DNA of 64,000 nucleotides, from contig CAXBMO010000006.1 of NCBI GenBank assembly GCA_963977015.1, positions 281,023 to 345,022 of the forward strand, in the 5' to 3' direction. This document shows positions 37,950-64,000 of the stretch, piece after piece; positions within the stretch are counted from its first letter, which is position 1; each line of letters begins with the position of its first letter. Under the pieces are notes generated by a model. It saw nothing but the letters and a program-made list of their open reading frames with translations. It did not search any database and had not been told where the DNA came from. This stretch comes from an uncultured bacterium (GTDB lineage Bacteria > Verrucomicrobiota > Verrucomicrobiia > Verrucomicrobiales > DEV007). The position numbers were made by a program, and so were the translations under genes.

Positions 37950-40900
37950 ATGAAGAGAAGGTTCGAATGCACGATGATCATCGCCGGGTTGATGCTTGTG
38001 AGCGGGTGTGAAATTGAGCAGGAGATCAACGACCGGAGCGAAGAAAAGCCAAAGCCTGAGTTCCATGTCAGGGAAGACGGAGTGGCCGGATTGACCCGGG
38101 AACAAACGCTTCCGGATCGCAATCTCAGGGGATTCGGCAAGGTGTCCGGTGTTCTTTGGAATTCTCCGGAGGGCTCGATCCTGCAGATCAACTGTGAGGA
38201 GACGCAGGATGCTCTTTTGACTCATGCCAAATATTTGTCGGACCTGCGGACGACGTCCTACGAATTGGAAAAAGTCACGATCCCGGACACGAATCTGTCA
38301 GCGTGGCAGGTGGAGGGGCAGGGTGTCGTTTCGGCGCTTTGCGAAGGAACCCGGGTTTTCATCATCGCTTCGTCGGAAATCGAGGGACTGGTGAAACTGA
38401 TTCGCGATGGATTTTCCGGTGAAGTTGCGAAAGCCGAGTCCGAACCAAAGGCGGAGGTCCCGATGTGGCTGGACCGCTGGGATCAATACGGGTTCCGTTT
38501 TTACTACCGGCCCTGGGAGCGGCCAAAATCAGGAGCATTTCAGGCCGAGAATTACGATGTCAGTCAGGAATTTGAGTTTGCGGAGCAATCGGATCGCAGT
38601 GGGTTTGTCTTTTGGGCGACCACCAACCAGGTGGATACCGCGGAGGGCATGACCAACTACGGGTACTGGAATTTTGCCGCCAAAGCGGCTGCCGCGAAAA
38701 AGCTGCCCGTGGGACTGAACATCATGACCGGTGGCCCGGGCATGAGCTGGTTTCACAACCGCTATCGAGACCAGGGCAGCATGAAAATGCCGCAGTACTG
38801 CGGGACCTATCATGAGGTGGCCAACGATTACTTTGGAGGAAGTGGGTTCGTTTCGTGGAATGCGACCACGGCGAAGGATGCCAACCTGGGAATCATTCAG
38901 GACTTTATCAATGAGTCCGCCGCGCACGGAAATTTGACCACGATCCTCGAGCCGCACGGGGAATTAAAGCACGGGGATTACGATCTGTTTATGGAATACG
39001 GTCCCATCGCGGATCGCGGTTTTCAGAGCTATCTGAAGACGCAGTATAACTCGCTTGCTCAACTCAATACCGCGTGGGGAACTTCGCTCAAATCGTGGGA
39101 GGAAGCCCGGGTTCCCGAGGTCGCTTCGTTTCTGGGTTGGGGAAAACAGGCCTTTGATCTGACCGGGCAATGGCGGATTCAACAGGAACCCGAATTCGAG
39201 GAAAAGGCGACCGGCGCCGAGCAGGCCGAGACGACTTCATCCAAGGCGCCGAAGGAATGGTTTGAAGCGGATTTCGATGATTCCTCCTGGCCGGCCTTTC
39301 TCGCTCCGGGTCATGACCGGACCATGTTTTTGCCCAAGAAACCGGCGGTTTACCGACAGACGATCGACCTGCCTGCCACCTGGATACAGGGCAAGAAAAA
39401 GGTCTATCTCTATTGCTGGGATCTGAATCGCGACTGGCATCAACCTGTCTTGCTTTATATCAACGGAAAACTGGCGGCGGAAGACAAGGTGAAGCATCCC
39501 GTCAGTCACTATATGGCGGTAGATGTCACGGCACATCTCCAGGCGGGGAAGAACCAGATCACCCTGCGATTGCCGTCCGGTTATCTGGCATACCGAATCT
39601 ATCTATCGCCGGACGAACCGCTGCAGTATCCCGCTCTCGGGAAGGAAAAGAATGCGCTTTGGGTCGACTTCATGGGGTGGATCCGCTGGTCCCGGGTTGA
39701 GATGGCCCGGCGCGGGATGGAGATGATTCGCCAGGCCCAGCCGGATATCCAGATTGATCTGATGGCGCCGGATGGTTATGAAGACGGGGTAAAGCAACTC
39801 GCGCAACGCTACGGAGGAAATTTCAAAAACACGGGCTACATGGGTGCGTTCTGGGCCGATCATCTTCCTTCTCAGATGCGTAGTGCCGGCTTGCCATTCT
39901 CGCTCGAACCCGGAGGTCCGGCCTCAACCCTCGAGGGCTTCAAAAAACAACTCGGGCTCTATCACACCGAAGGCCTCAACGGAATCGATTACTTCATCCA
40001 TATCGGAAGTGTCATGTGGCCCGATGACATCCGTGCGCATTTTCAGAAGACCCTGAAGACGACTCGTTTGATCGGCAAATATCACCCGCCCCAAAGTGAG
40101 GTCGCCTTCTTTTGGGGGACCAAGAACAAAGCGCTGCAGGGATATCCCTGGGGAACCGATCCTGACGTCAATCTTCCCTCTGCCTATAATTGCAAGGACA
40201 CTGCGAACCAGTTGCTCTGGCGGGGATGGCCGAGGGATAATGTATCGGAAAGCGATTTTGCCAACGGCAACGCGAATCAATACAAGGTCATCATCGATAC
40301 CAACACCTCGATCATGACCGAGGAGCAATTGAAGGGAATCGAGGACTATGTCCGCCAAGGAGGGACCTTTCTAACCTTTATCCAAACCGGGCGCCACACG
40401 CCGACCGAAACCGATACCTGGAAGATATCAACGTTGACCGGCTACAAGGTGTTGTCCTGGGATTTGCCGGTCTCCGACCAAGACCCGGGACCGCAACCCA
40501 TGAAGCCGGCTCCCGGTCAGGAGTTTTTCACGCAGAAGGACGGCTGGGTCTATCGAGCGAGCGTCGGTCTCCGCCTTGAAAAAGTGGCTCCGGATGCGCA
40601 GGATCTTCTCCACTGGAATGACGGAACGGTCGCTGCCGGGATGCGATCGATCGGCAAGGGAAGAATCATTCATTTCGGTCCGCGCAATGGAACCCAATGG
40701 TGGCCCGGTGTGGATGTCGATGCCCTGGAATCGATCTTGAGAAATTTGAACATCAGTCAGGTGCCGGCGCATTTTGAGAAGGAGCAAAATGGCAAGGATC
40801 TTCTCATGCGCCACTATGTGACGAACAATGGTCTCTATCACGTCTGGGCGGTCTGGAATCAGAACCCAACGGAATCCCGCCAGGCAACATTGGTCTTCGA

Positions 40901-42952: not shown

Positions 42953-45667
42953 TCACAAATCTTGATCCTCATTCAGGATGATCTCGGGGGTCTTCAGGCG
43001 CAAACGGATCTGCTTTTCGGTTTCGATGATCAAGAGGAAGACGACGCCAATGCCAACGATGATGACCCCGTCGAAAAAGGGCACCGGCGCGGTTTCGAAG
43101 ATGGGCTGCAGTGGCGGCAGATAGGTAATGGCAAACTGGGCGATGGTGACGGAGATCACGGTCGCCCACACCATCCTGGTGCCCTTGACCAGCTTCCAGG
43201 TTAACGACGTTCCGTAAATATTCCGGATGAAGAACAGGTGGGCAATCTCCATGACCACGAGGGTATTCACGGCCATGGTCCGCGCCAGTTCGAGGGAATA
43301 GCCCCGGTCGATGGCATATGCGTAGATCCCGAAAACGCCAAAAAGAAACAGGGTCGAGACGAGGACGATGTGCCACGCCAATTCCCCGGTTAGTAGCGGC
43401 TCGTTCCTTGGGCGCGGCGCGCGGCGCATCGTATTGTCTTCGGTCGGCTCGAAAGCCAGCGCGATCCCCAGCGTAATCGCGGTGATCAGGTTGATCCAAA
43501 GAATCTGGACGGCGGTGATCGGCAGGGTCATGCCAAGAAGCAGCGCGACGACGATCGTCATGGCTTCCCCGGCATTGGTCGGCAGGGTCCAGCTGATCAC
43601 CTTCTTGATGTTGTCGTAGACCGTTCGTCCCTCGCGCACGGCGGCAACGATCGAGGCGAAATTGTCATCCGCGAGAACCAGCTCGGCGGCTTCCTTTGCG
43701 GCCTCGCTGCCTTTCACTCCCATGGCGATGCCGGCGTCGGCACGCTTGAGCGCGGGCGCGTCGTTCACGCCGTCCCCCGTCATCGCGACCGTCAGGCCGT
43801 GGGATTGCAACGCCATCACGAGCCTGAGTTTGTGCTCCGGGCTCGTCCGGGCGAAAATGTCCGCATCCAGAACGGTGGCTGCCAGCGTGATGTCATCCAT
43901 GGCGTCAAGATCGGAGCCGGAAAGTACCCGGTCGGGATTCTGAAGTCCGATTTTCCGCCCGATCGCGGCGGCCGTTCCCTTGTGGTCTCCGGTGATCATC
44001 TTGACCCGTATCCCGGCGTCGCGACACTCCGCGACGGCCGCAATGGCCTCGGGACGCGGCGGATCGATCAGTCCCACCAAGCCGATCAGGATCAGCGCGC
44101 CTTCAACGTCCTCGAACTCGAGGACGGTATGTTCCGGCGGGACCTGCCTGACCGCAAACGCCAACACGCGCTGGCCCTGCGCCGCGATGGCCTCGGCTTT
44201 TTCGTGCCAGTAGGCTTCCTTGCGAGGCTCGGTTCCGTTCGTCAGGCTTCGCTGCTCCGCGCACATGGAAAGAATCACTTCCGGCGCGCCTTTCACCGAA
44301 ATGAAGGCATGGTTTTCATGGTCGTGATTCAACGTGGCCATGAAGCGATGCTTGGAGTCGAAAGGGATGGCATCGGTGCGCGTCCACGTTGCGATCTCGT
44401 TTCTGATATCCAGGCCGATCTTGCCGGACAAGGTCAACAACGCGCCTTCCATCGGGTCGCCCTCGACCGCCCACTCGCCCTCATGTTCGTGCAGCGAAGC
44501 GTCGTTGCACAAGGCTGCCGAACGACCGAGTTCTTCAAGGATGGTGTGCTCGCGGCCGGTCACCGCGGCTTCGTTCAGCCTGATGATGCCGTTCGGTTGA
44601 TACCCGGAACCCTCAAGCGCGAACACGTGAGCTTGCGTCACCACCGAGGTGGCCATCATTTCATTGCGTGTCAGGGTACCGGTTTTGTCAGAGCAGATCA
44701 CCGACACCGAACCCAGCGTTTCAATCGCGGGCAATCGCCGGACAATGGCATTGCGTCGAGCCATGGCCTGCACCCCAACCGCCAGGGTGATGGTCAGGAC
44801 TGCGGGCAACCCCTCGGGGATGGCGGCAACGGACAAGCCGACGACCGCCATGAACATTTCGGCAAACTCAAAATGTTCGACGAAGTAGCCGAATACCAGC
44901 AGGACCGCGGCGATCAGGAGGATCAGGATGGTCAACCACTTGGCAAAAACGTTCATCTGCCGGACCAACGGCGTGGTGAGAACTTCGACCTTTGAAAGCA
45001 TGCCGCTGATGCGCCCGATTTCCGTGTTTGCACCCGTTGCCACCACGATTCCCCGTCCCATTCCGCTGGTAACCAGGGTGCCGCTGAACGCCATGCAGGT
45101 GCGGTCGCCCAGCGCCGCATCGGTCGGCACCGCCCCCGTTTGCTTGTCCACCGGCACGGATTCTCCCGTGAGAATCGCTTCCTGAACCTGAAGGCCGTGA
45201 GCCTTGATCAAGCGCAGGTCGGCGGGAACTTTGTCGCCCGCCTCCAGCAACACGATGTCGCCGGGAACCAGGTGGTCGCCCTCGATGCTGCGGCGGTCAC
45301 CATCCCGCAATACCGAAGCCCGAAGGGCAAGCATGCGGCGGATTGCCTCCATCGCCTTCTCCGCCTTGCCTTCCTGAAAGAAGCCGATCGCGGCATTGGC
45401 AACGACCACCGCCAGGATGACCAGCGTATCGGTGACATGCCCCAACGAAGCCGTGATGGCCGCCGATCCCAGAAGCACGTAGATCAGGATGTTGTGGAAA
45501 TGGAGGACAAACCGGGTCAGGGCCCTGCGTTTGGGCGGCTCCGGAAGTCGATTGGGGCCGTGCTCAGCCAGGCGTGCCGCCGCCTCTTCATGGGTGAGGC
45601 CATCGACCGACGTCGTCAAGACGTCCAGAACCGCGTCCGGGGACTCGTGGTGCCAATGAGGGTCCAT
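42953..45667 (-). CDS. Cation-transporting P2A-type ATPase (Ca2+-type, CtpF/PacL-like)
   Basis: [48 protein letters not shown]. Confidence 0.95.
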
Positions 45668-59637: not shown

Positions 59638-60798
59638 ATGAAAGACGATCTTCTAAAAGCTTGGCGGATATTGCGGCCCCTCGTGAAGGACGGATACACA
59701 TTTTCGGAAATCAAAGATCTCGCTGGTTCGTCCGCCCTTCCAATCGAGGAACTCACACACCTTCAACAGAAATCCCTTCCAGCAAAGAGTGCCACAAAGT
59801 CCCAGCTTCTGGATGCCATAGATGACCTCATTTGTAGAGAGGAACAACCTGAGGACTCGATCAGACTCCTTATTTCATTCGTGTGGAAAGGAAACCCCGA
59901 ACTCCGCGAAGAGATCGTGGATCGCTTGAAAGAACAAGGAATCACCATTGAGGATGGCGAGGTTGTGAGCGAGATTCGCTCCAAATCCACTCAGACCATG
60001 AAAAGAGACCGAGAGTTGCAGGTACAAATGCTTCTCGACCTGCGGAATGGAACCCAGCAGGTCGATCCCTCACAGTACGAGAGTGAGCATCTTGCCTACA
60101 ATGCGGCTTTGATCCTGGACGAAGGACTGGCCGAGGGCGACTCGGTCAAGAACCACCGTGGACGGTATGCAAGTGCCGTACTGACGCACTTAACGGGAAA
60201 GGGACATGATTTTCTAGACGCCCTCGACGAAGATGGCCCCGAACCGCAGCAACTTGCCACCCCTATGAAAGTTTTTGTGAGTCATTCATCTGATGACGCC
60301 ATATTAGCTGAAGCGATTGTAGAATTGCTCCGCGCCGCTCTCAGTATTCCAGCATCCCAGATTCGATGTACGAGTGTTCCAGAGTATGGGTTGGATGTCG
60401 GTGATAATACCGATGCCCGTCTGAAAGCCGAGGTGAGAGAATCGAAGTGCTTCATTGCCCTGATCACGCCCGTAAGCATAGGATCAACTTACGTCCTTTT
60501 CGAACTGGGTGCTAGATGGGGAACGGAACTCCCGCTTTTCCCCGTTTTGGGACGCGGCGCTACCTCGCGGAATCTGGACGGACCACTCAAGGCGATAAAC
60601 GCAATTTCGCTGACGGATGTGAGCCGAATTCATCACCTTATCAATAAGGTTGGGTCTGTTCTGGAGCTGACACTTGCCGAGACAGAGACGTTCGCACGCA
60701 AGGTTGAGGCGGTCAGGGAGGCGGCAAAGGATACGATCCAAGTCGAACCATCATTGGGGGCACATCCGAGACTCTGGAGAACACACCTGAGAGGATAA
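59638..60798 (+). CDS. Cassette 1 multi-domain TIR protein (helical NTD, DUF2513-like winged helix, TIR)
   Basis: MKRDRELQVQMLL..LAYNAALILDEGLAEG..LTGKGHDFLDAL (DUF2513-like); KVFVSHSSDD..IRCTS..FIALIT..STYVLFELGARW (TIR with catalytic Glu). Confidence 0.85.
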   Translation: MKDDLLKAWRILRPLVKDGYTFSEIKDLAGSSALPIEELTHLQQKSLPAKSATKSQLLDAIDDLICREEQPEDSIRLLISFVWKGNPELREEIVDRLKEQGITIEDGEVVSEIRSKSTQTMKRDRELQVQMLLDLRNGTQQVDPSQYESEHLAYNAALILDEGLAEGDSVKNHRGRYASAVLTHLTGKGHDFLDALDEDGPEPQQLATPMKVFVSHSSDDAILAEAIVELLRAALSIPASQIRCTSVPEYGLDVGDNTDARLKAEVRESKCFIALITPVSIGSTYVLFELGARWGTELPLFPVLGRGATSRNLDGPLKAINAISLTDVSRIHHLINKVGSVLELTLAETETFARKVEAVREAAKDTIQVEPSLGAHPRLWRTHLRG

Positions 60799-61001
60799 TG
60801 AATTTGTTGTTTTCAGCTACAAGCATTCCAACTGTTCAGGAAATTGCAGAAGCACTCGACGTGCCACTTCTTCAGATTGGAGCGCATCTGGAAGGTCTAG
60901 AAGATGATAATCGAGTCAAGAAAGAGAATAACCACCCTCGCCTTGAAGAGTGCCGCTACAAGCTCACTCCGGACGAAATGAAGGCAAGAATCAAGCACTA
61001 A
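60798..61001 (+). CDS. Small winged-helix protein, possibly the frameshifted C-terminal domain of the TIR gene
   Basis: PTVQEIAEALDV..IGAHLEGLEDDNRV..YKLT. TAATG overlap; the frame is also open upstream through the G5 run at 60756-60760. Its stop lies in attC R''. Confidence 0.65.
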   Translation: MNLLFSATSIPTVQEIAEALDVPLLQIGAHLEGLEDDNRVKKENNHPRLEECRYKLTPDEMKARIKH

Positions 61002-61054
61002 CAATGCGTTGCACCGGAACGCTGATCGCGTCCGGTGAACGCTGACGTTAGCCC
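60995..61054 (+). mobile_element. Integron attC site 1
   Basis: R'' GCACTAAC, L'' GTTGCACC versus L' GGTGAAC (one extrahelical base), inner CCGGA/TCCGG stem, R' GTTAGCCC. Confidence 0.88.
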
Positions 61055-61079: not shown

Positions 61080-61463
61080 ATGCCTGCAAAGACTGATCAG
61101 GAACTCACCGGTGACGGTTTCACTTCCGCTGGCATCTCCAGATATCGCCAAGTGATTGATGGTTACACCGGAGAGGTTCATTCGAAGGCAGTTCGCCAAG
61201 CGGATGCCGAGAAGGCTAGTGACATGCCGCGTGAGGTCACGGACAATCATGTTCGGGCCGCAGCCCATTCCATTGCGTCAAGTTACGGCACAAAAGTTCG
61301 CCCAAAGTGGTGGATTCCCTGCCACGTGGCGGAATATGTCTTTACAGCTGTTGCTGGGGTAGGAGCTGGCAAGCTCGATCAATGGTGGGGAATTCTTATG
61401 TTTGGGGTGGGCCTCGGAATTGCGGTGCTGCTCATCGTTATCCGCCTTACTTCGAAAGCCTAA
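61080..61463 (+). CDS. Cassette 2 gene A: histone-fold-like N-domain plus two TM helices
   Basis: FTSAGISRYRQVIDGYTGEVHSKAVRQADAEKA..REVTDNHVRAAA, then two hydrophobic segments. Fold is inferred from the pattern only. Confidence 0.6.
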   Translation: MPAKTDQELTGDGFTSAGISRYRQVIDGYTGEVHSKAVRQADAEKASDMPREVTDNHVRAAAHSIASSYGTKVRPKWWIPCHVAEYVFTAVAGVGAGKLDQWWGILMFGVGLGIAVLLIVIRLTSKA

Positions 61464-61475
61464 CTTACCGCACAA

Positions 61476-61889
61476 ATGGAATATAAATATACAGAATCAG
61501 CCGAGAAGGAGTTGGAGGACTTCAAGCGGGAACAGGTAGCGCTACTTGAGGACTTTGTCCGCAGGCGTAAATATGTGTATGGGGATGATCTAATTGAGGT
61601 GACAGGATCAGACGTGAAGGAAGCAAAGCGCCATTTCACGATCATCGATAATCGAAAGTCTAGCATCCGCCAACTGACCTTGGGAACCTACTTATTCATC
61701 GGGATCGTTACCTTGATCGGGGGGCTTTTCTACGAGCAAATCCGCGCAGCGATGACCGGCGATCCCACTCAACTAATGATAATTCTGATGGGGGTCACGA
61801 TGATCTTCGCCAGTCTATTTGGTCATTGGTGGTTCCGCTTTCGTGATCGCATTCGTGCCGAACGCAGGGAATTCACCGACGAGAAATAG
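61476..61889 (+). CDS. Cassette 2 gene B: histone-fold-like N-domain plus two TM helices
   Basis: YTESAEKELEDFKREQVALLEDFVRRRKY..IEVTGSDVKEAK, then LTLGTYLFIGIVTLIGGLFY and LMIILMGVTMIFASLFGHWWF. Confidence 0.6.
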   Translation: MEYKYTESAEKELEDFKREQVALLEDFVRRRKYVYGDDLIEVTGSDVKEAKRHFTIIDNRKSSIRQLTLGTYLFIGIVTLIGGLFYEQIRAAMTGDPTQLMIILMGVTMIFASLFGHWWFRFRDRIRAERREFTDEK

Positions 61890-61893
61890 ACGA

Positions 61894-62016
61894 GGGCTAA
61901 CAAGACGTGGCTACCAACAGGCTGCCCGCCGCGAGTCGAAAGCGTCATGACAACTCAACCATCAACCCTGAATTCGGAGCGCGCCCTCAGGCAGCCTGTG
62001 GCAGCACTCTGACGTT
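61894..62016 (+). mobile_element. Integron attC site 2, interrupted after the GTT of R'
   Basis: R'' GGGCTAAC (complement of the cassette start GTTAGCCC), stem ACAGGCTGCC/GGCAGCCTGT, ending CTGACGTT followed by GTGCG. Confidence 0.88.
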
Positions 62017-64000
62017 GTGCGCCAAGCGAAGCGAGGCGTTTCTTATGATATGAAAGTAATCTTGTGATAAAACCTAGCCAGTAGTCACTACCGAGTGTTG
62101 CGTTCATGTTAGCTAAGCCAGAGAAGATTCGCGGAAGCCGCCGCGTGACCAAGGCCCAATTCCATTCGCCCCTTGCGAATGGCTGGCGGAACAGCATGGA
62201 TGAAGCGTACACAGGGAATCGACTAGCCCACAGGGAGGTTCGCACCCTCCCGAATGGTTGTATTTTGACAGCCCCGTAATAGCTAAGCGCGATGGTTCAG
62301 GACTTAACGTTATCTGAAAACAGCATCGGCTTCCGCGATTTCAATGGCGAGCGGAGGTCGGCGTCGCCGGGGTCTAAAGACCGTGGGATGGTCGAAGAGA
62401 AGCGATATTAAAATGAGTCGGAATTCACCGGATAAGAAGACCGATTCACCTCGAACTTGGGAGGCCTCGCCGCCGTCCTTGCTGGGGAATGATCCCCGTG
62501 AGGTGACCGATACCCAACCCAAAGAAGGGATCGGTGGAAGTGGTGAGGAGTCAGACCCGCCCATACTACTCCGAGACGGTAACGCCGTTCACATGGGGAA
62601 GGGGGCTGGTGTAAAAACCAGTAGGGCGGAGAATCAACGCGGACATTGCACCGACACGAGGGGAAGGAATGCCCCCAAACAAAGTGTCTCAAGCACCCTG
62701 TCTGCCCTGTCACGCAAGGCTGCGAAGGAGCCGAAGCATCGCTTCCGGTCTCTGGAGCGGCTGATCGACTTGCAGATGCTCTACGAATGCTTCCATAACC
62801 TGAAACGCAAGGCCGCGCCCGGAGTGGACGGCGTTGTGGTGGAAGACTATGAGAAGAACTTGGATGAGAATCTGCGAGATCTGGAGAAGCGTCTGCGGGA
62901 AAAGCGCTACCGGGCGCAACCTGTGAGACGCCGGTATATTCAGAAGGCGGGAAGCCGGAAACGGCGTCCGCTGGGTATACCAACCTTGGAAGATAAGATC
63001 GTACAACAAGCAGCAAGCTGGATCTTGCAAAGTATCTACGAAGAGGATTTTAGCGAACGCAGCGTCGGGTATCGGCGAGGCGTGCCTGGTCCCCGGAAAT
63101 GCAGCTACCAACTGTCCCGCGAGTTAGACAGCGGTGTCTACCGATGGGTGGTGGAGGCTGACATCCGGAGCTTCTTCGATGATGTGAACCATGACTGGCT
63201 GCTGCGGATGCTGGAACAACGCGTCAACGACCGCTCTTTCCTGAAATTGATCACCAAATGGCTGAAGGCCGGAGGGCTGGATGCCGAGGCGAACAATGTT
63301 TGGGAAGAGAGCGTGAGTGGCACGCCGCAAGGAGGCATCATCTCCCCGGTCCTGGCTAATATATACCTGCACTACGTGTTGGATCTATGGCTGGAGAAAC
63401 GGTTCCGCAAGGAACTGGAGGGGCGGATGCTGTGGATGCGTTTTGCCGATGACTTCATCGTGTGTTTTTGAGAGGAAACGCGACGCGGAGAACTTCCTGG
63501 CTCAGCTTGGTCCCCGGCTTCGTGAGTTTAGCCTCACGTTGGCCGAGGAGAAAAGCGGATTGGTGAAGTTCAACCGGTGGGAGCCGGATAGCAGCGGGAA
63601 GTTCACCTTCCTGGGGTTCGACTTCTACTGGGCGCGCACGCGCCGGAATCGCAATCACAAGATGGTCAAACGCAGAACGAGCAGGAAGAAGCTTCGCGCG
63701 GCGTTAGGCGGGATGAAAGACTGGATTCGGACCAATATGCATAAGCCCTTGGACTGGATCGTGGAACGGCTTCGGGCCAAACTGATGGGTCACTGGAACT
63801 ACTACGGCGTTCTGGGAAACAGCCAGCGTCTGGGCACCTACGAGCGGGAGGTCAAGGGATTGATCTTCAAATGGCTCAATCGTCGCAGCCAGCGCAAGAG
63901 CTTTACCTGGGAAAAGCTGTTAGCCCGGTGGACCACGGTGTGGCAACTGCCGCCCGCGAGGGTGGTGGAAGAAATCGACCCCGCCTATCAACCCCGCCTT
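62017..64000 (+). mobile_element. Group II intron (class E-like), 3' end outside the window
   Basis: 5' GTGCG at 62017; about 650 nt of non-coding leader; candidate EBS1 AACGTT (62306-62311) in a stem-loop; RT/maturase ORF. Confidence 0.88.
62669..64000 (+). CDS. ltrA: Group II intron reverse transcriptase/maturase, frameshifted at T5 63465-63469; start uncertain
   Basis: [53 protein letters not shown]. After a +1 shift: [23 protein letters not shown] (domain X). ATG 62669 behind GGAAGGA needs one extra C in the C5 run to be in frame. Confidence 0.92.

Follow-up and report, generated by a model that had tools for sequence, protein, structure and literature searches.

What is a group II intron doing inside the recombination site (attC) of an integron cassette array, on the same strand as the cassettes? 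This question is raised by the end of a 64,000-nt stretch of DNA from an uncultured bacterium of the Verrucomicrobiales (positions 281023 to 345022 of contig C6 in the genome under study, G000; hereafter the window), at whose base 64000 the contig stops. Following up an earlier note on this DNA, we consider it likely that a mobile intron of class E, with IIB-like RNA and an endonuclease-minus (En-minus) protein, has left a decayed copy here. Its sublineage is predicted to retrohome into the top strand of attC sites, at the position directly 3' of GTT in the R' box. The lineage is real and coherent, and the local copy is decayed.

Two small cassettes on the + strand occupy the final 3 kb of the window; attC1 comes after the first and attC2 after the second. 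Two small cassette open reading frames (ORFs; 61080-61463 and 61476-61889 in the ORF list), in neither of which a Pfam search found a family, lie on the intron's strand and 5' of the occupied site, attC2 (61895-62016, +). This site, which follows the second of the two ORFs, is a long imperfect hairpin closed by AAC/GTT: it begins with the R'' box GGCTAAC (61895-61901) and ends in CTGACGTT (62009-62016, with GTT at 62014-62016). Constrained folding of the 118 nt GGCTAAC...GTT gave one bulged hairpin of -38 kcal/mol. Directly after the end of attC2, from 62017, the sequence continues with GTGCGCC, which places an intron 5' end of the form GTGCG on the cassette strand. The claim of the earlier note that this GTGCG replaces the RRRY expected after the conserved hairpin end can be read directly in the sequence. 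The unoccupied site attC1 (60996-61053, +; R'' box CACTAAC) has the identical 8-base end CTGACGTT (61042-61049), there followed by AGCC, and the note's description of attC1 as a potential empty target holds.

The intron covers 62017-64000 (+) and is cut after its first 1984 nt by the contig end. A sister copy that ends at C36:39668 predicts a full length of 2146 nt, so that about 162 nt and the 3' exon are missing here. Its ribozyme domains match Rfam family RF02005 (group-II-D1D4-6) at 62134-62383 (+; 55.1 bits, E 2e-13, gathering score 49). This is the sole Rfam match at E<=1 between 50000 and 64000, and no attC-named family is among the matches of that interval.

How the intron could recognize the R' box follows from a stem-loop at 62296-62318 (+) with arms TTCAGG/TCTGAA and the loop ACTTAACGTTA at 62302-62313. 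Within this loop, AACGTTA (62306-62312; AACGTT at 62306-62311) forms seven contiguous pairs, one of them G-U, with TGACGTT (62010-62016, +), the final seven bases of the 5' exon. These would be exon-binding site 1 (EBS1) and intron-binding site 1 (IBS1), as the earlier note had proposed for AACGTT and GACGTT. Aligning 51 related introns with a hidden Markov model gave us the homologous loop of each. At least five contiguous base pairs from position -1 are formed with the intron's own exon in 38 of the 51, compared with 12.3% of 2490 mismatched loop/exon combinations, and the pairing is perfect even at quite different targets (TGCCTA/TAGGCA, GTCGAG/CTCGAC, TCATTG/CAATGA). The loop at 62302-62313 is EBS1, and AACGTT is located in it. 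Its AAC core pairs with GTT, the sole invariant triplet of R'. Specificity beyond these 5-7 bp could come from EBS2, from protein contacts or from the hairpin itself, as in class C. A CTC(A) motif recurs 5-10 nt upstream of GTT in the 5' exons; it has no convincing pairing partner and may be part of attC itself.

The other end of the intron can be seen in sister copies. BLAST of G000 found six further intron pieces. In the following, a caret marks the exon-intron boundary. One piece is a 316-nt 5' fragment with its 5' end at C36:11942 and the 5' exon ...CATCCGTT^; another is an internally deleted, ORF-less copy of 579 nt (C28:64158-63580, -) with the 5' junction TTGACGTT^ and the 3' junction GAT^AGGC. 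This mini-intron lacks the EBS1 region and the reverse transcriptase (RT) but keeps both splice ends, giving GTT^AGGC. Three 3' fragments end at C36:39668 (^AGTC), C18:44113 (^AGCC) and C11:158870 (GTT^CGGT, a divergent copy). In total, G000 provides three 5' junctions (CTGACGTT^, TTGACGTT^ and CATCCGTT^) and four 3' junctions (^AGTC, ^AGGC, ^AGCC and ^CGGT). The 3' copy on C36 matches RF00029 (domains V/VI) with 44.4 bits and ends in ...CTACCTTGAT, where the base 8 nt from the end is an A; its domain VI pairing was judged by eye. Domain V of the sister copies begins with GAGC (AGC triad). Since CTACCTYRAT at the 3' end is conserved across distant relatives while the following base varies, we place the 3' splice site after AT. 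The intron thus stands between GTT and AGNC in G000, which reproduces an R' box like that of the unoccupied attC1 (GTTAGCC). The earlier note had proposed examining whether the 3' flank restores a GTTRRRY-like box: the sister copies in G000 do so with ^AGGC, ^AGCC and ^AGTC, the window's own 3' flank being unassembled. Unrelated sequence abuts the upstream side of the 3' fragments at C36:~39830-40300 (-) and C18:~44430-44700 (-); on C36 it reads like a transposase remnant. This suggests that later insertions or deletions destroyed these two copies.

Related introns came from three sources: 401 genomes of the phylum, 15 of which gave a hit at E<=1e-80; 401 genomes of the class, with hits at E<=1e-100 in 4; and 80 metagenome contigs. 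Their 5' ends could be assigned automatically for 62 of 104 loci. The RT tree (IQ-TREE quick mode, LG+G4, support from the Shimodaira-Hasegawa-like approximate likelihood ratio test, SH-aLRT) has 102 rows; loci with fewer than 330 aligned residues were dropped, except for five that were restored as partial rows. The window intron belongs to a clade of seven rows (SH-aLRT 99), all of which have the junction ...GTT^GTGCG (window, L010, L011, L035, L036, L037, L038). This clade is enclosed by one of 41 rows (SH-aLRT 100), where the 31 rows with a 5' end comprise seven at GTT^, ten at GTTA^ (L013, L025, L042, L044, L047, L049, L052, L065, L070, L089), one each at GTTG^ and GCTA^, and twelve at other sequences. 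EBS1 of the GTTA^ introns reads TAAC...: the register is moved by one base on the same R' box and the AAC:GTT core is unchanged. Close homologues of the window intron therefore insert at the same site, and the proposal of an independent attC-targeting lineage apart from the known attC-specific class C introns (IIC-attC) stands on these seven of seven clade members. A search of the genome contigs with an intact related RT (P0001, see below) gave one distant locus (47% identity over the C-terminus) with a 5' exon other than GTT.

The genomic context of the relatives points to the same strand. In G249, the intron shares a contig with an above-cut-off integrase gene (intI); three cassette ORFs precede it, and its strand is the one that leads away from intI. 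The G665 intron comes after the second cassette of an array that runs in the intron's direction, and a split intI-like gene is 1.5 kb away. Together with the + strand ORFs upstream of attC2, these two arrays running from intI bear out the top-strand R' insertion in cassette orientation that had been proposed for the window. An ORF starts 10-62 nt past the intron 3' end on the same strand in all six loci with a defined 3' end.

Are the occupied sites attC sites? We scored hairpins by the pairing of the 30 nt inside AAC...GTT (anchored-arm score), a home-made heuristic with 4000 random GTT sites of G000 as controls. Lowest-energy constrained folds were dropped in favour of this score, as over-long partners were sometimes picked (e.g. 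for L010), and a gapless inverted-repeat finder was discarded as symmetric and too strict (68 hits). attC1 scores 12.5, and attC2 scores 10.5, a value reached by 0.1% of the control sites. The share of controls reaching the score of each clade member is 0.001 for the window and 0.0003, 0.005, 0.011, 0.03, 0.06 (L036) and 0.39 (L038) for the others. Among the GTTA^ sites, L089 (<0.00025), L049 (0.0013), L061 (0.011) and L042 (0.022) score high, and L044 and L052 do not (both 0.58). Of the 12,455 ACGTT sites in G000, only 91 (0.7%) reach a score of 8 and 22 a score of 10; the three intron junctions of this genome score 10.5, 11.0 and 3.5.

BLAST of attC1 and attC2 against the genome gave just one partial extra match; the attC sites of this genome therefore do not form a family by sequence. 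G000 has one integron integrase above the cut-off (TIGR02249, 291 bits, cut-off 265; C1:216131-217426, +), beside which our heuristic scan detected no clear cassette array. Cassette arrays with intron fragments are found on C6, C36, C28, C18 and C11. The window array is, as assembled, a cluster of attC sites lacking integron integrases (CALIN), because the integrase lies on contig C1 and not on the window's contig. Four consecutive attC-like hairpins at C36:41527-44549 (-) end in TTGACGTT, AGGACGTT, TGAACGTT and CAATCGTT, and three of the four carry an unoccupied ACGTT target. Moreover, attC2 aligns over its full length with an unoccupied attC at about 3592-3714 of L010, in a genome of another family (G297), with a conserved central block common to both. 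This type of attC moves among hosts of the window's intron lineage. In G665, the intron-free attC of the first cassette (L122, contig C24, ~2240-2260) ends in GACGTT^GTGCTGAAAATG, where the caret marks the position after GTT; its natural R' box, GTTGTGC, equals the junction made by the intron. As a separate observation on the window array, its first cassette (59638-60798, +) encodes a protein of 386 aa that matches TIR_2 (E 3.5e-11) and, below threshold, DUF2513; it could be a defence-type cassette.

The class of the intron was deduced from its RT and its ribozyme. P0001 is an intact metagenomic RT protein of 509 aa that is 95% identical to the window RT. A disrupted intron on plasmid pRmeGR4b has been named the class E intron S.me.I4 (PMC5894124). 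This plasmid has exactly two RT loci, one intact (33% identity to P0001) and one disrupted (44%). The disrupted locus matches RF02005 with 145 bits, whereas RmInt1 (class D) on the same plasmid matches RF01999. The identity is thus 44% to S.me.I4 and 33% to RmInt1. In the RT tree, whose sole labelled references are these two, S.me.I4 is placed within the ingroup, and a long outgroup branch leads to RmInt1. Across 18 related loci, all 16 matches to domains D1-D4 are to RF02005. Class C RTs from the PDB were no closer than LtrA. The assignment as class E-like, with IIB-like RNA and an En-minus intron-encoded protein, is thus supported, the labelled references being one class E and one class D intron. 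The earlier note had reached it from an N-terminal string and the motif WLNRRSQ of the RT, both of which we found in the ORFs, and the ribozyme family common with S.me.I4 and the higher identity to it than to RmInt1 agree with that view.

The RT of the window copy is broken. RT domains 0-5 are encoded by a first ORF part (62344-63471, +) that ends at the TGA at 63469-63471; RT domains 6-7 and the X/maturase domain follow in the +1 frame (63472-64000, +), open at the contig end. Comparison with the intact P0001 shows that the five-T run at 63465-63469 has one T too many, which splits the frame and creates the TGA that separates the two ORFs. Pfam recognizes RVT_1 (E 1.4e-23) and GIIM (E 3e-05) in the window RT and no endonuclease/HNH domain in either part. 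P0001 itself ends in LAL shortly past the X domain, two residues beyond the last matched residue of the window. Among the sequencing runs listed as carrying the window stretch, none is of RNA. Four marine-metagenome runs of one study carry it only as short low-depth Logan contigs, and contigs of two runs of one study reproduce the extra T without differences. These metagenome contigs contain no joint across the intron and nothing past the contig end, and their loose ends correspond to other intron copies already known in the genome. With tblastn of the assembly we found neither another near-full copy nor an intact RT of this lineage. The window copy is probably immobile by itself, its RT being frameshifted and the other copies in the assembly being fragments or ORF-less deletion derivatives. 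Two further RT-like genes of G000 (C17:1484-2476 and C18:45733-46599, both -) are about 31% identical to P0001 and may belong to other retroelements.

Several points weigh against an attC-specific class E intron. By the hairpin score, which is our own heuristic rather than IntegronFinder and has controls from G000 only, L036 (0.06), L038 (0.39) and the C28 junction (3.5) are non-significant, and the L038 flank resembles a perfect palindrome rather than attC. L010 and L035 pair through just 3 contiguous bp (AAC/GTT) with their own exons; sites with mismatches beyond this core are therefore tolerated. Neither EBS2/IBS2, sought by eye in the 5' exons and domain I, nor EBS3 was identified. The 3' exon of the window copy is unassembled, restoration of the R' box being deduced from the sister copies, and 3' exons outside G000 begin with CGGC, CTGT, CGCC and CTGG, which are not RRRY; GTTCTGA is also found at an unoccupied attC of G249. 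Some automatic 5' ends may be wrong (e.g. that of L058), the frameshifted window RT is represented in the tree by P0001, and the class label comes from two labelled references, one of class E and the other of class D.

On a rival view, the intron recognizes just a short sequence, namely (G)ACGTT and one further base on the 3' side. attC ends would carry it by chance, and the location in attC would be a by-product of other insertions being purged from genes, without any specialization on attC. Some members do sit at weak or non-attC-like hairpins, as L038 and the C28 copy, no EBS2 or hairpin-recognition element has been found, and related class E introns retarget freely via changes in EBS1. Yet a high-scoring hairpin is rare at the ACGTT sites of G000 (0.7% reach 8) and present at two of its three junctions, and five of the seven clade members have control shares of 0.03 or less. 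Two clade members adjoin intI, and the ten sister GTTA^ introns likewise centre on the R' GTT. As intergenic space far exceeds attC space, purging alone does not predict attC, and we regard short-sequence recognition as unlikely. Far less probable is a hairpin that travels with the intron as a 5' appendage of a composite element and is no attC at all. Most copies are indeed preceded by a hairpin, but the three G000 copies have hairpins of unrelated sequence in front of them, attC2 has its full-length intron-free relative in G297, and intron-free hairpins of the same kinds occur at attC1, in the C36 array and at downstream sites in L010 and L011; these unoccupied sites contradict a composite element. 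We give practically no weight to a known IIC-attC intron that is merely mis-oriented. Such an intron would share the location in attC and the lack of an endonuclease domain, but IIC-attC introns enter the bottom strand near the attC 5' end (PMC3001079), and the RF02005 match as for class E S.me.I4, the AGC triad, the 7-bp EBS1 pairing and the sense orientation disagree with it. Membership in that group was tried and rejected, as neither RNA nor RT is class C and the intron shares the strand of the cassette ORFs instead of being antisense to them.

If the intron targets attC as we propose, what would its insertion do to the array? By splitting the R' box, it may block the attC, as the earlier note suggested, making it inactive for the integrase IntI and freezing the neighbouring cassettes, a tentative reading that would be compatible with attC-specific retrohoming as its consequence. 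About 2.1 kb now separate GTT from RRRY, and R'' GGCTAAC and the new GTTGTGC would pair at only about 4 of 7 positions. Still, the conserved GTT/AAC triplets adjoin the hairpin as before, and the unoccupied attC of G665 naturally ends in GACGTT^GTGC; the R' variant GTTGTGC therefore exists in working-looking arrays. IntI crosses over at G^TT. Relative to this point, the intron would lie 2 nt inside the downstream cassette and would formally belong to it. A usable GTTGTGC R' box would be left behind, so that IntI could excise and spread the intron within that cassette. It is conceivable, if somewhat doubtful, that the class E sublineage and its GTTA^ sisters are integron passengers, which use the integron as both landing pad and vehicle, are expressed and spliced with the cassette RNA and are spread by IntI with the downstream cassette. 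EBS1 of such a passenger would use the same triplet as the R'' box of attC, AAC, to capture the R' GTT on the non-recombinogenic top strand.

Retrohoming into the attC top strand by an endonuclease-less intron would presumably take place during replication. The proposal is that at replication forks the ribonucleoprotein reverse-splices into DNA that is single-stranded or transiently open, a nascent strand serving as the primer, as for other endonuclease-less introns such as RmInt1. The attC bottom strands reside within the leading-strand template for 25 of 30 sedentary integrons (Loot et al., PMC5371416); the top strand would therefore be on the lagging template as an exposed target. In G000, the G-rich strand is the intron sense strand in the four informative contigs, the fifth, C36, being without skew. 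This fits the fork model, though strand skew is not independent of array orientation. As the intron lies in cassette direction, it is predicted to be transcribed along with the cassettes and could be spliced from the cassette transcript, which would leave the downstream genes intact and the intron expressed, unlike the antisense IIC-attC introns.

Targeting of attC by group II introns has been treated as a speciality of class C with antisense insertion, and therefore as a dead end for the intron. A 2015 review describes homing in "all lineages but class C" and assigns attC targeting to class C alone (PMC4424553). If our reading is true, the lineage would represent a second, independent solution to attC targeting at the mirror position on the coding strand. 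It would also be a natural example in which a DNA site with structure but hardly any fixed sequence is read by the short EBS1 of a IIB-type intron, and perhaps a passenger that rides silently in the cassette arrays of environmental bacteria. Integron annotators would gain an explanation for "broken" attC sites. As intact relatives exist (P0001, 509 aa), assays of retrohoming, splicing and IntI recombination are directly feasible.

Class E introns in cassette arrays are not wholly new. Sonbol and Siam (2021; PMC7923331) report two 5'-truncated class E fragments, H.ha.F1 and H.ha.F2, in a CALIN of Halorhodospira halochloris, and an intron of type CL1, UHB.I2, after an attC, and suggest that the hairpin plays a role. 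Like the window intron, these IIB/class E introns lie inside cassette arrays in cassette orientation with attC-like hairpins upstream. As H.ha.F1 and H.ha.F2 are 5'-truncated, neither their insertion point nor an EBS1/IBS1 pairing nor specificity across a clade could be defined from them. The same paper cites a 2012 report of a class C intron that also inserted in sense orientation into the attC top strand and differs from our intron in class. Among the papers listed by our full-text literature searches, which mostly leave out subscription journals, none pinpoints where a class E intron inserts in attC.

The nearest plasmid-borne relatives are introns of Klebsiella and Pandoraea. They belong to the same ribozyme family, RF02005, as does S.me.I4; RT identity to P0001 is 38-44% when S.me.I4 is included and 38-41% for the Klebsiella and Pandoraea introns. 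In contrast to our lineage, their EBS1 targets are not GTT. The Klebsiella copy is flanked by umuD and parM, and no integron genes were seen at the two inspected plasmid loci. RmInt1, a class D intron without endonuclease, provides the model for the proposed mechanism with fork reverse splicing and a lagging-template bias (PMC5894124). It differs in its ribozyme family (RF01999), in its RT (33% identity) and in homing into an insertion sequence rather than a hairpin site. A close parallel is found in the group IIC-attC introns, S.ma.I2 and its relatives, which are likewise En-minus and occupy a fixed attC position beside the core triplet of the folded hairpin. They are of class C, insert into the bottom strand near the R'' end and lie antisense to the cassettes, so that the cassette promoter Pc does not transcribe them (PMC3001079). 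The lineage presented here, with class E-type RNA and RT, instead enters the top strand, behind the GTT of R', and is sense-oriented.

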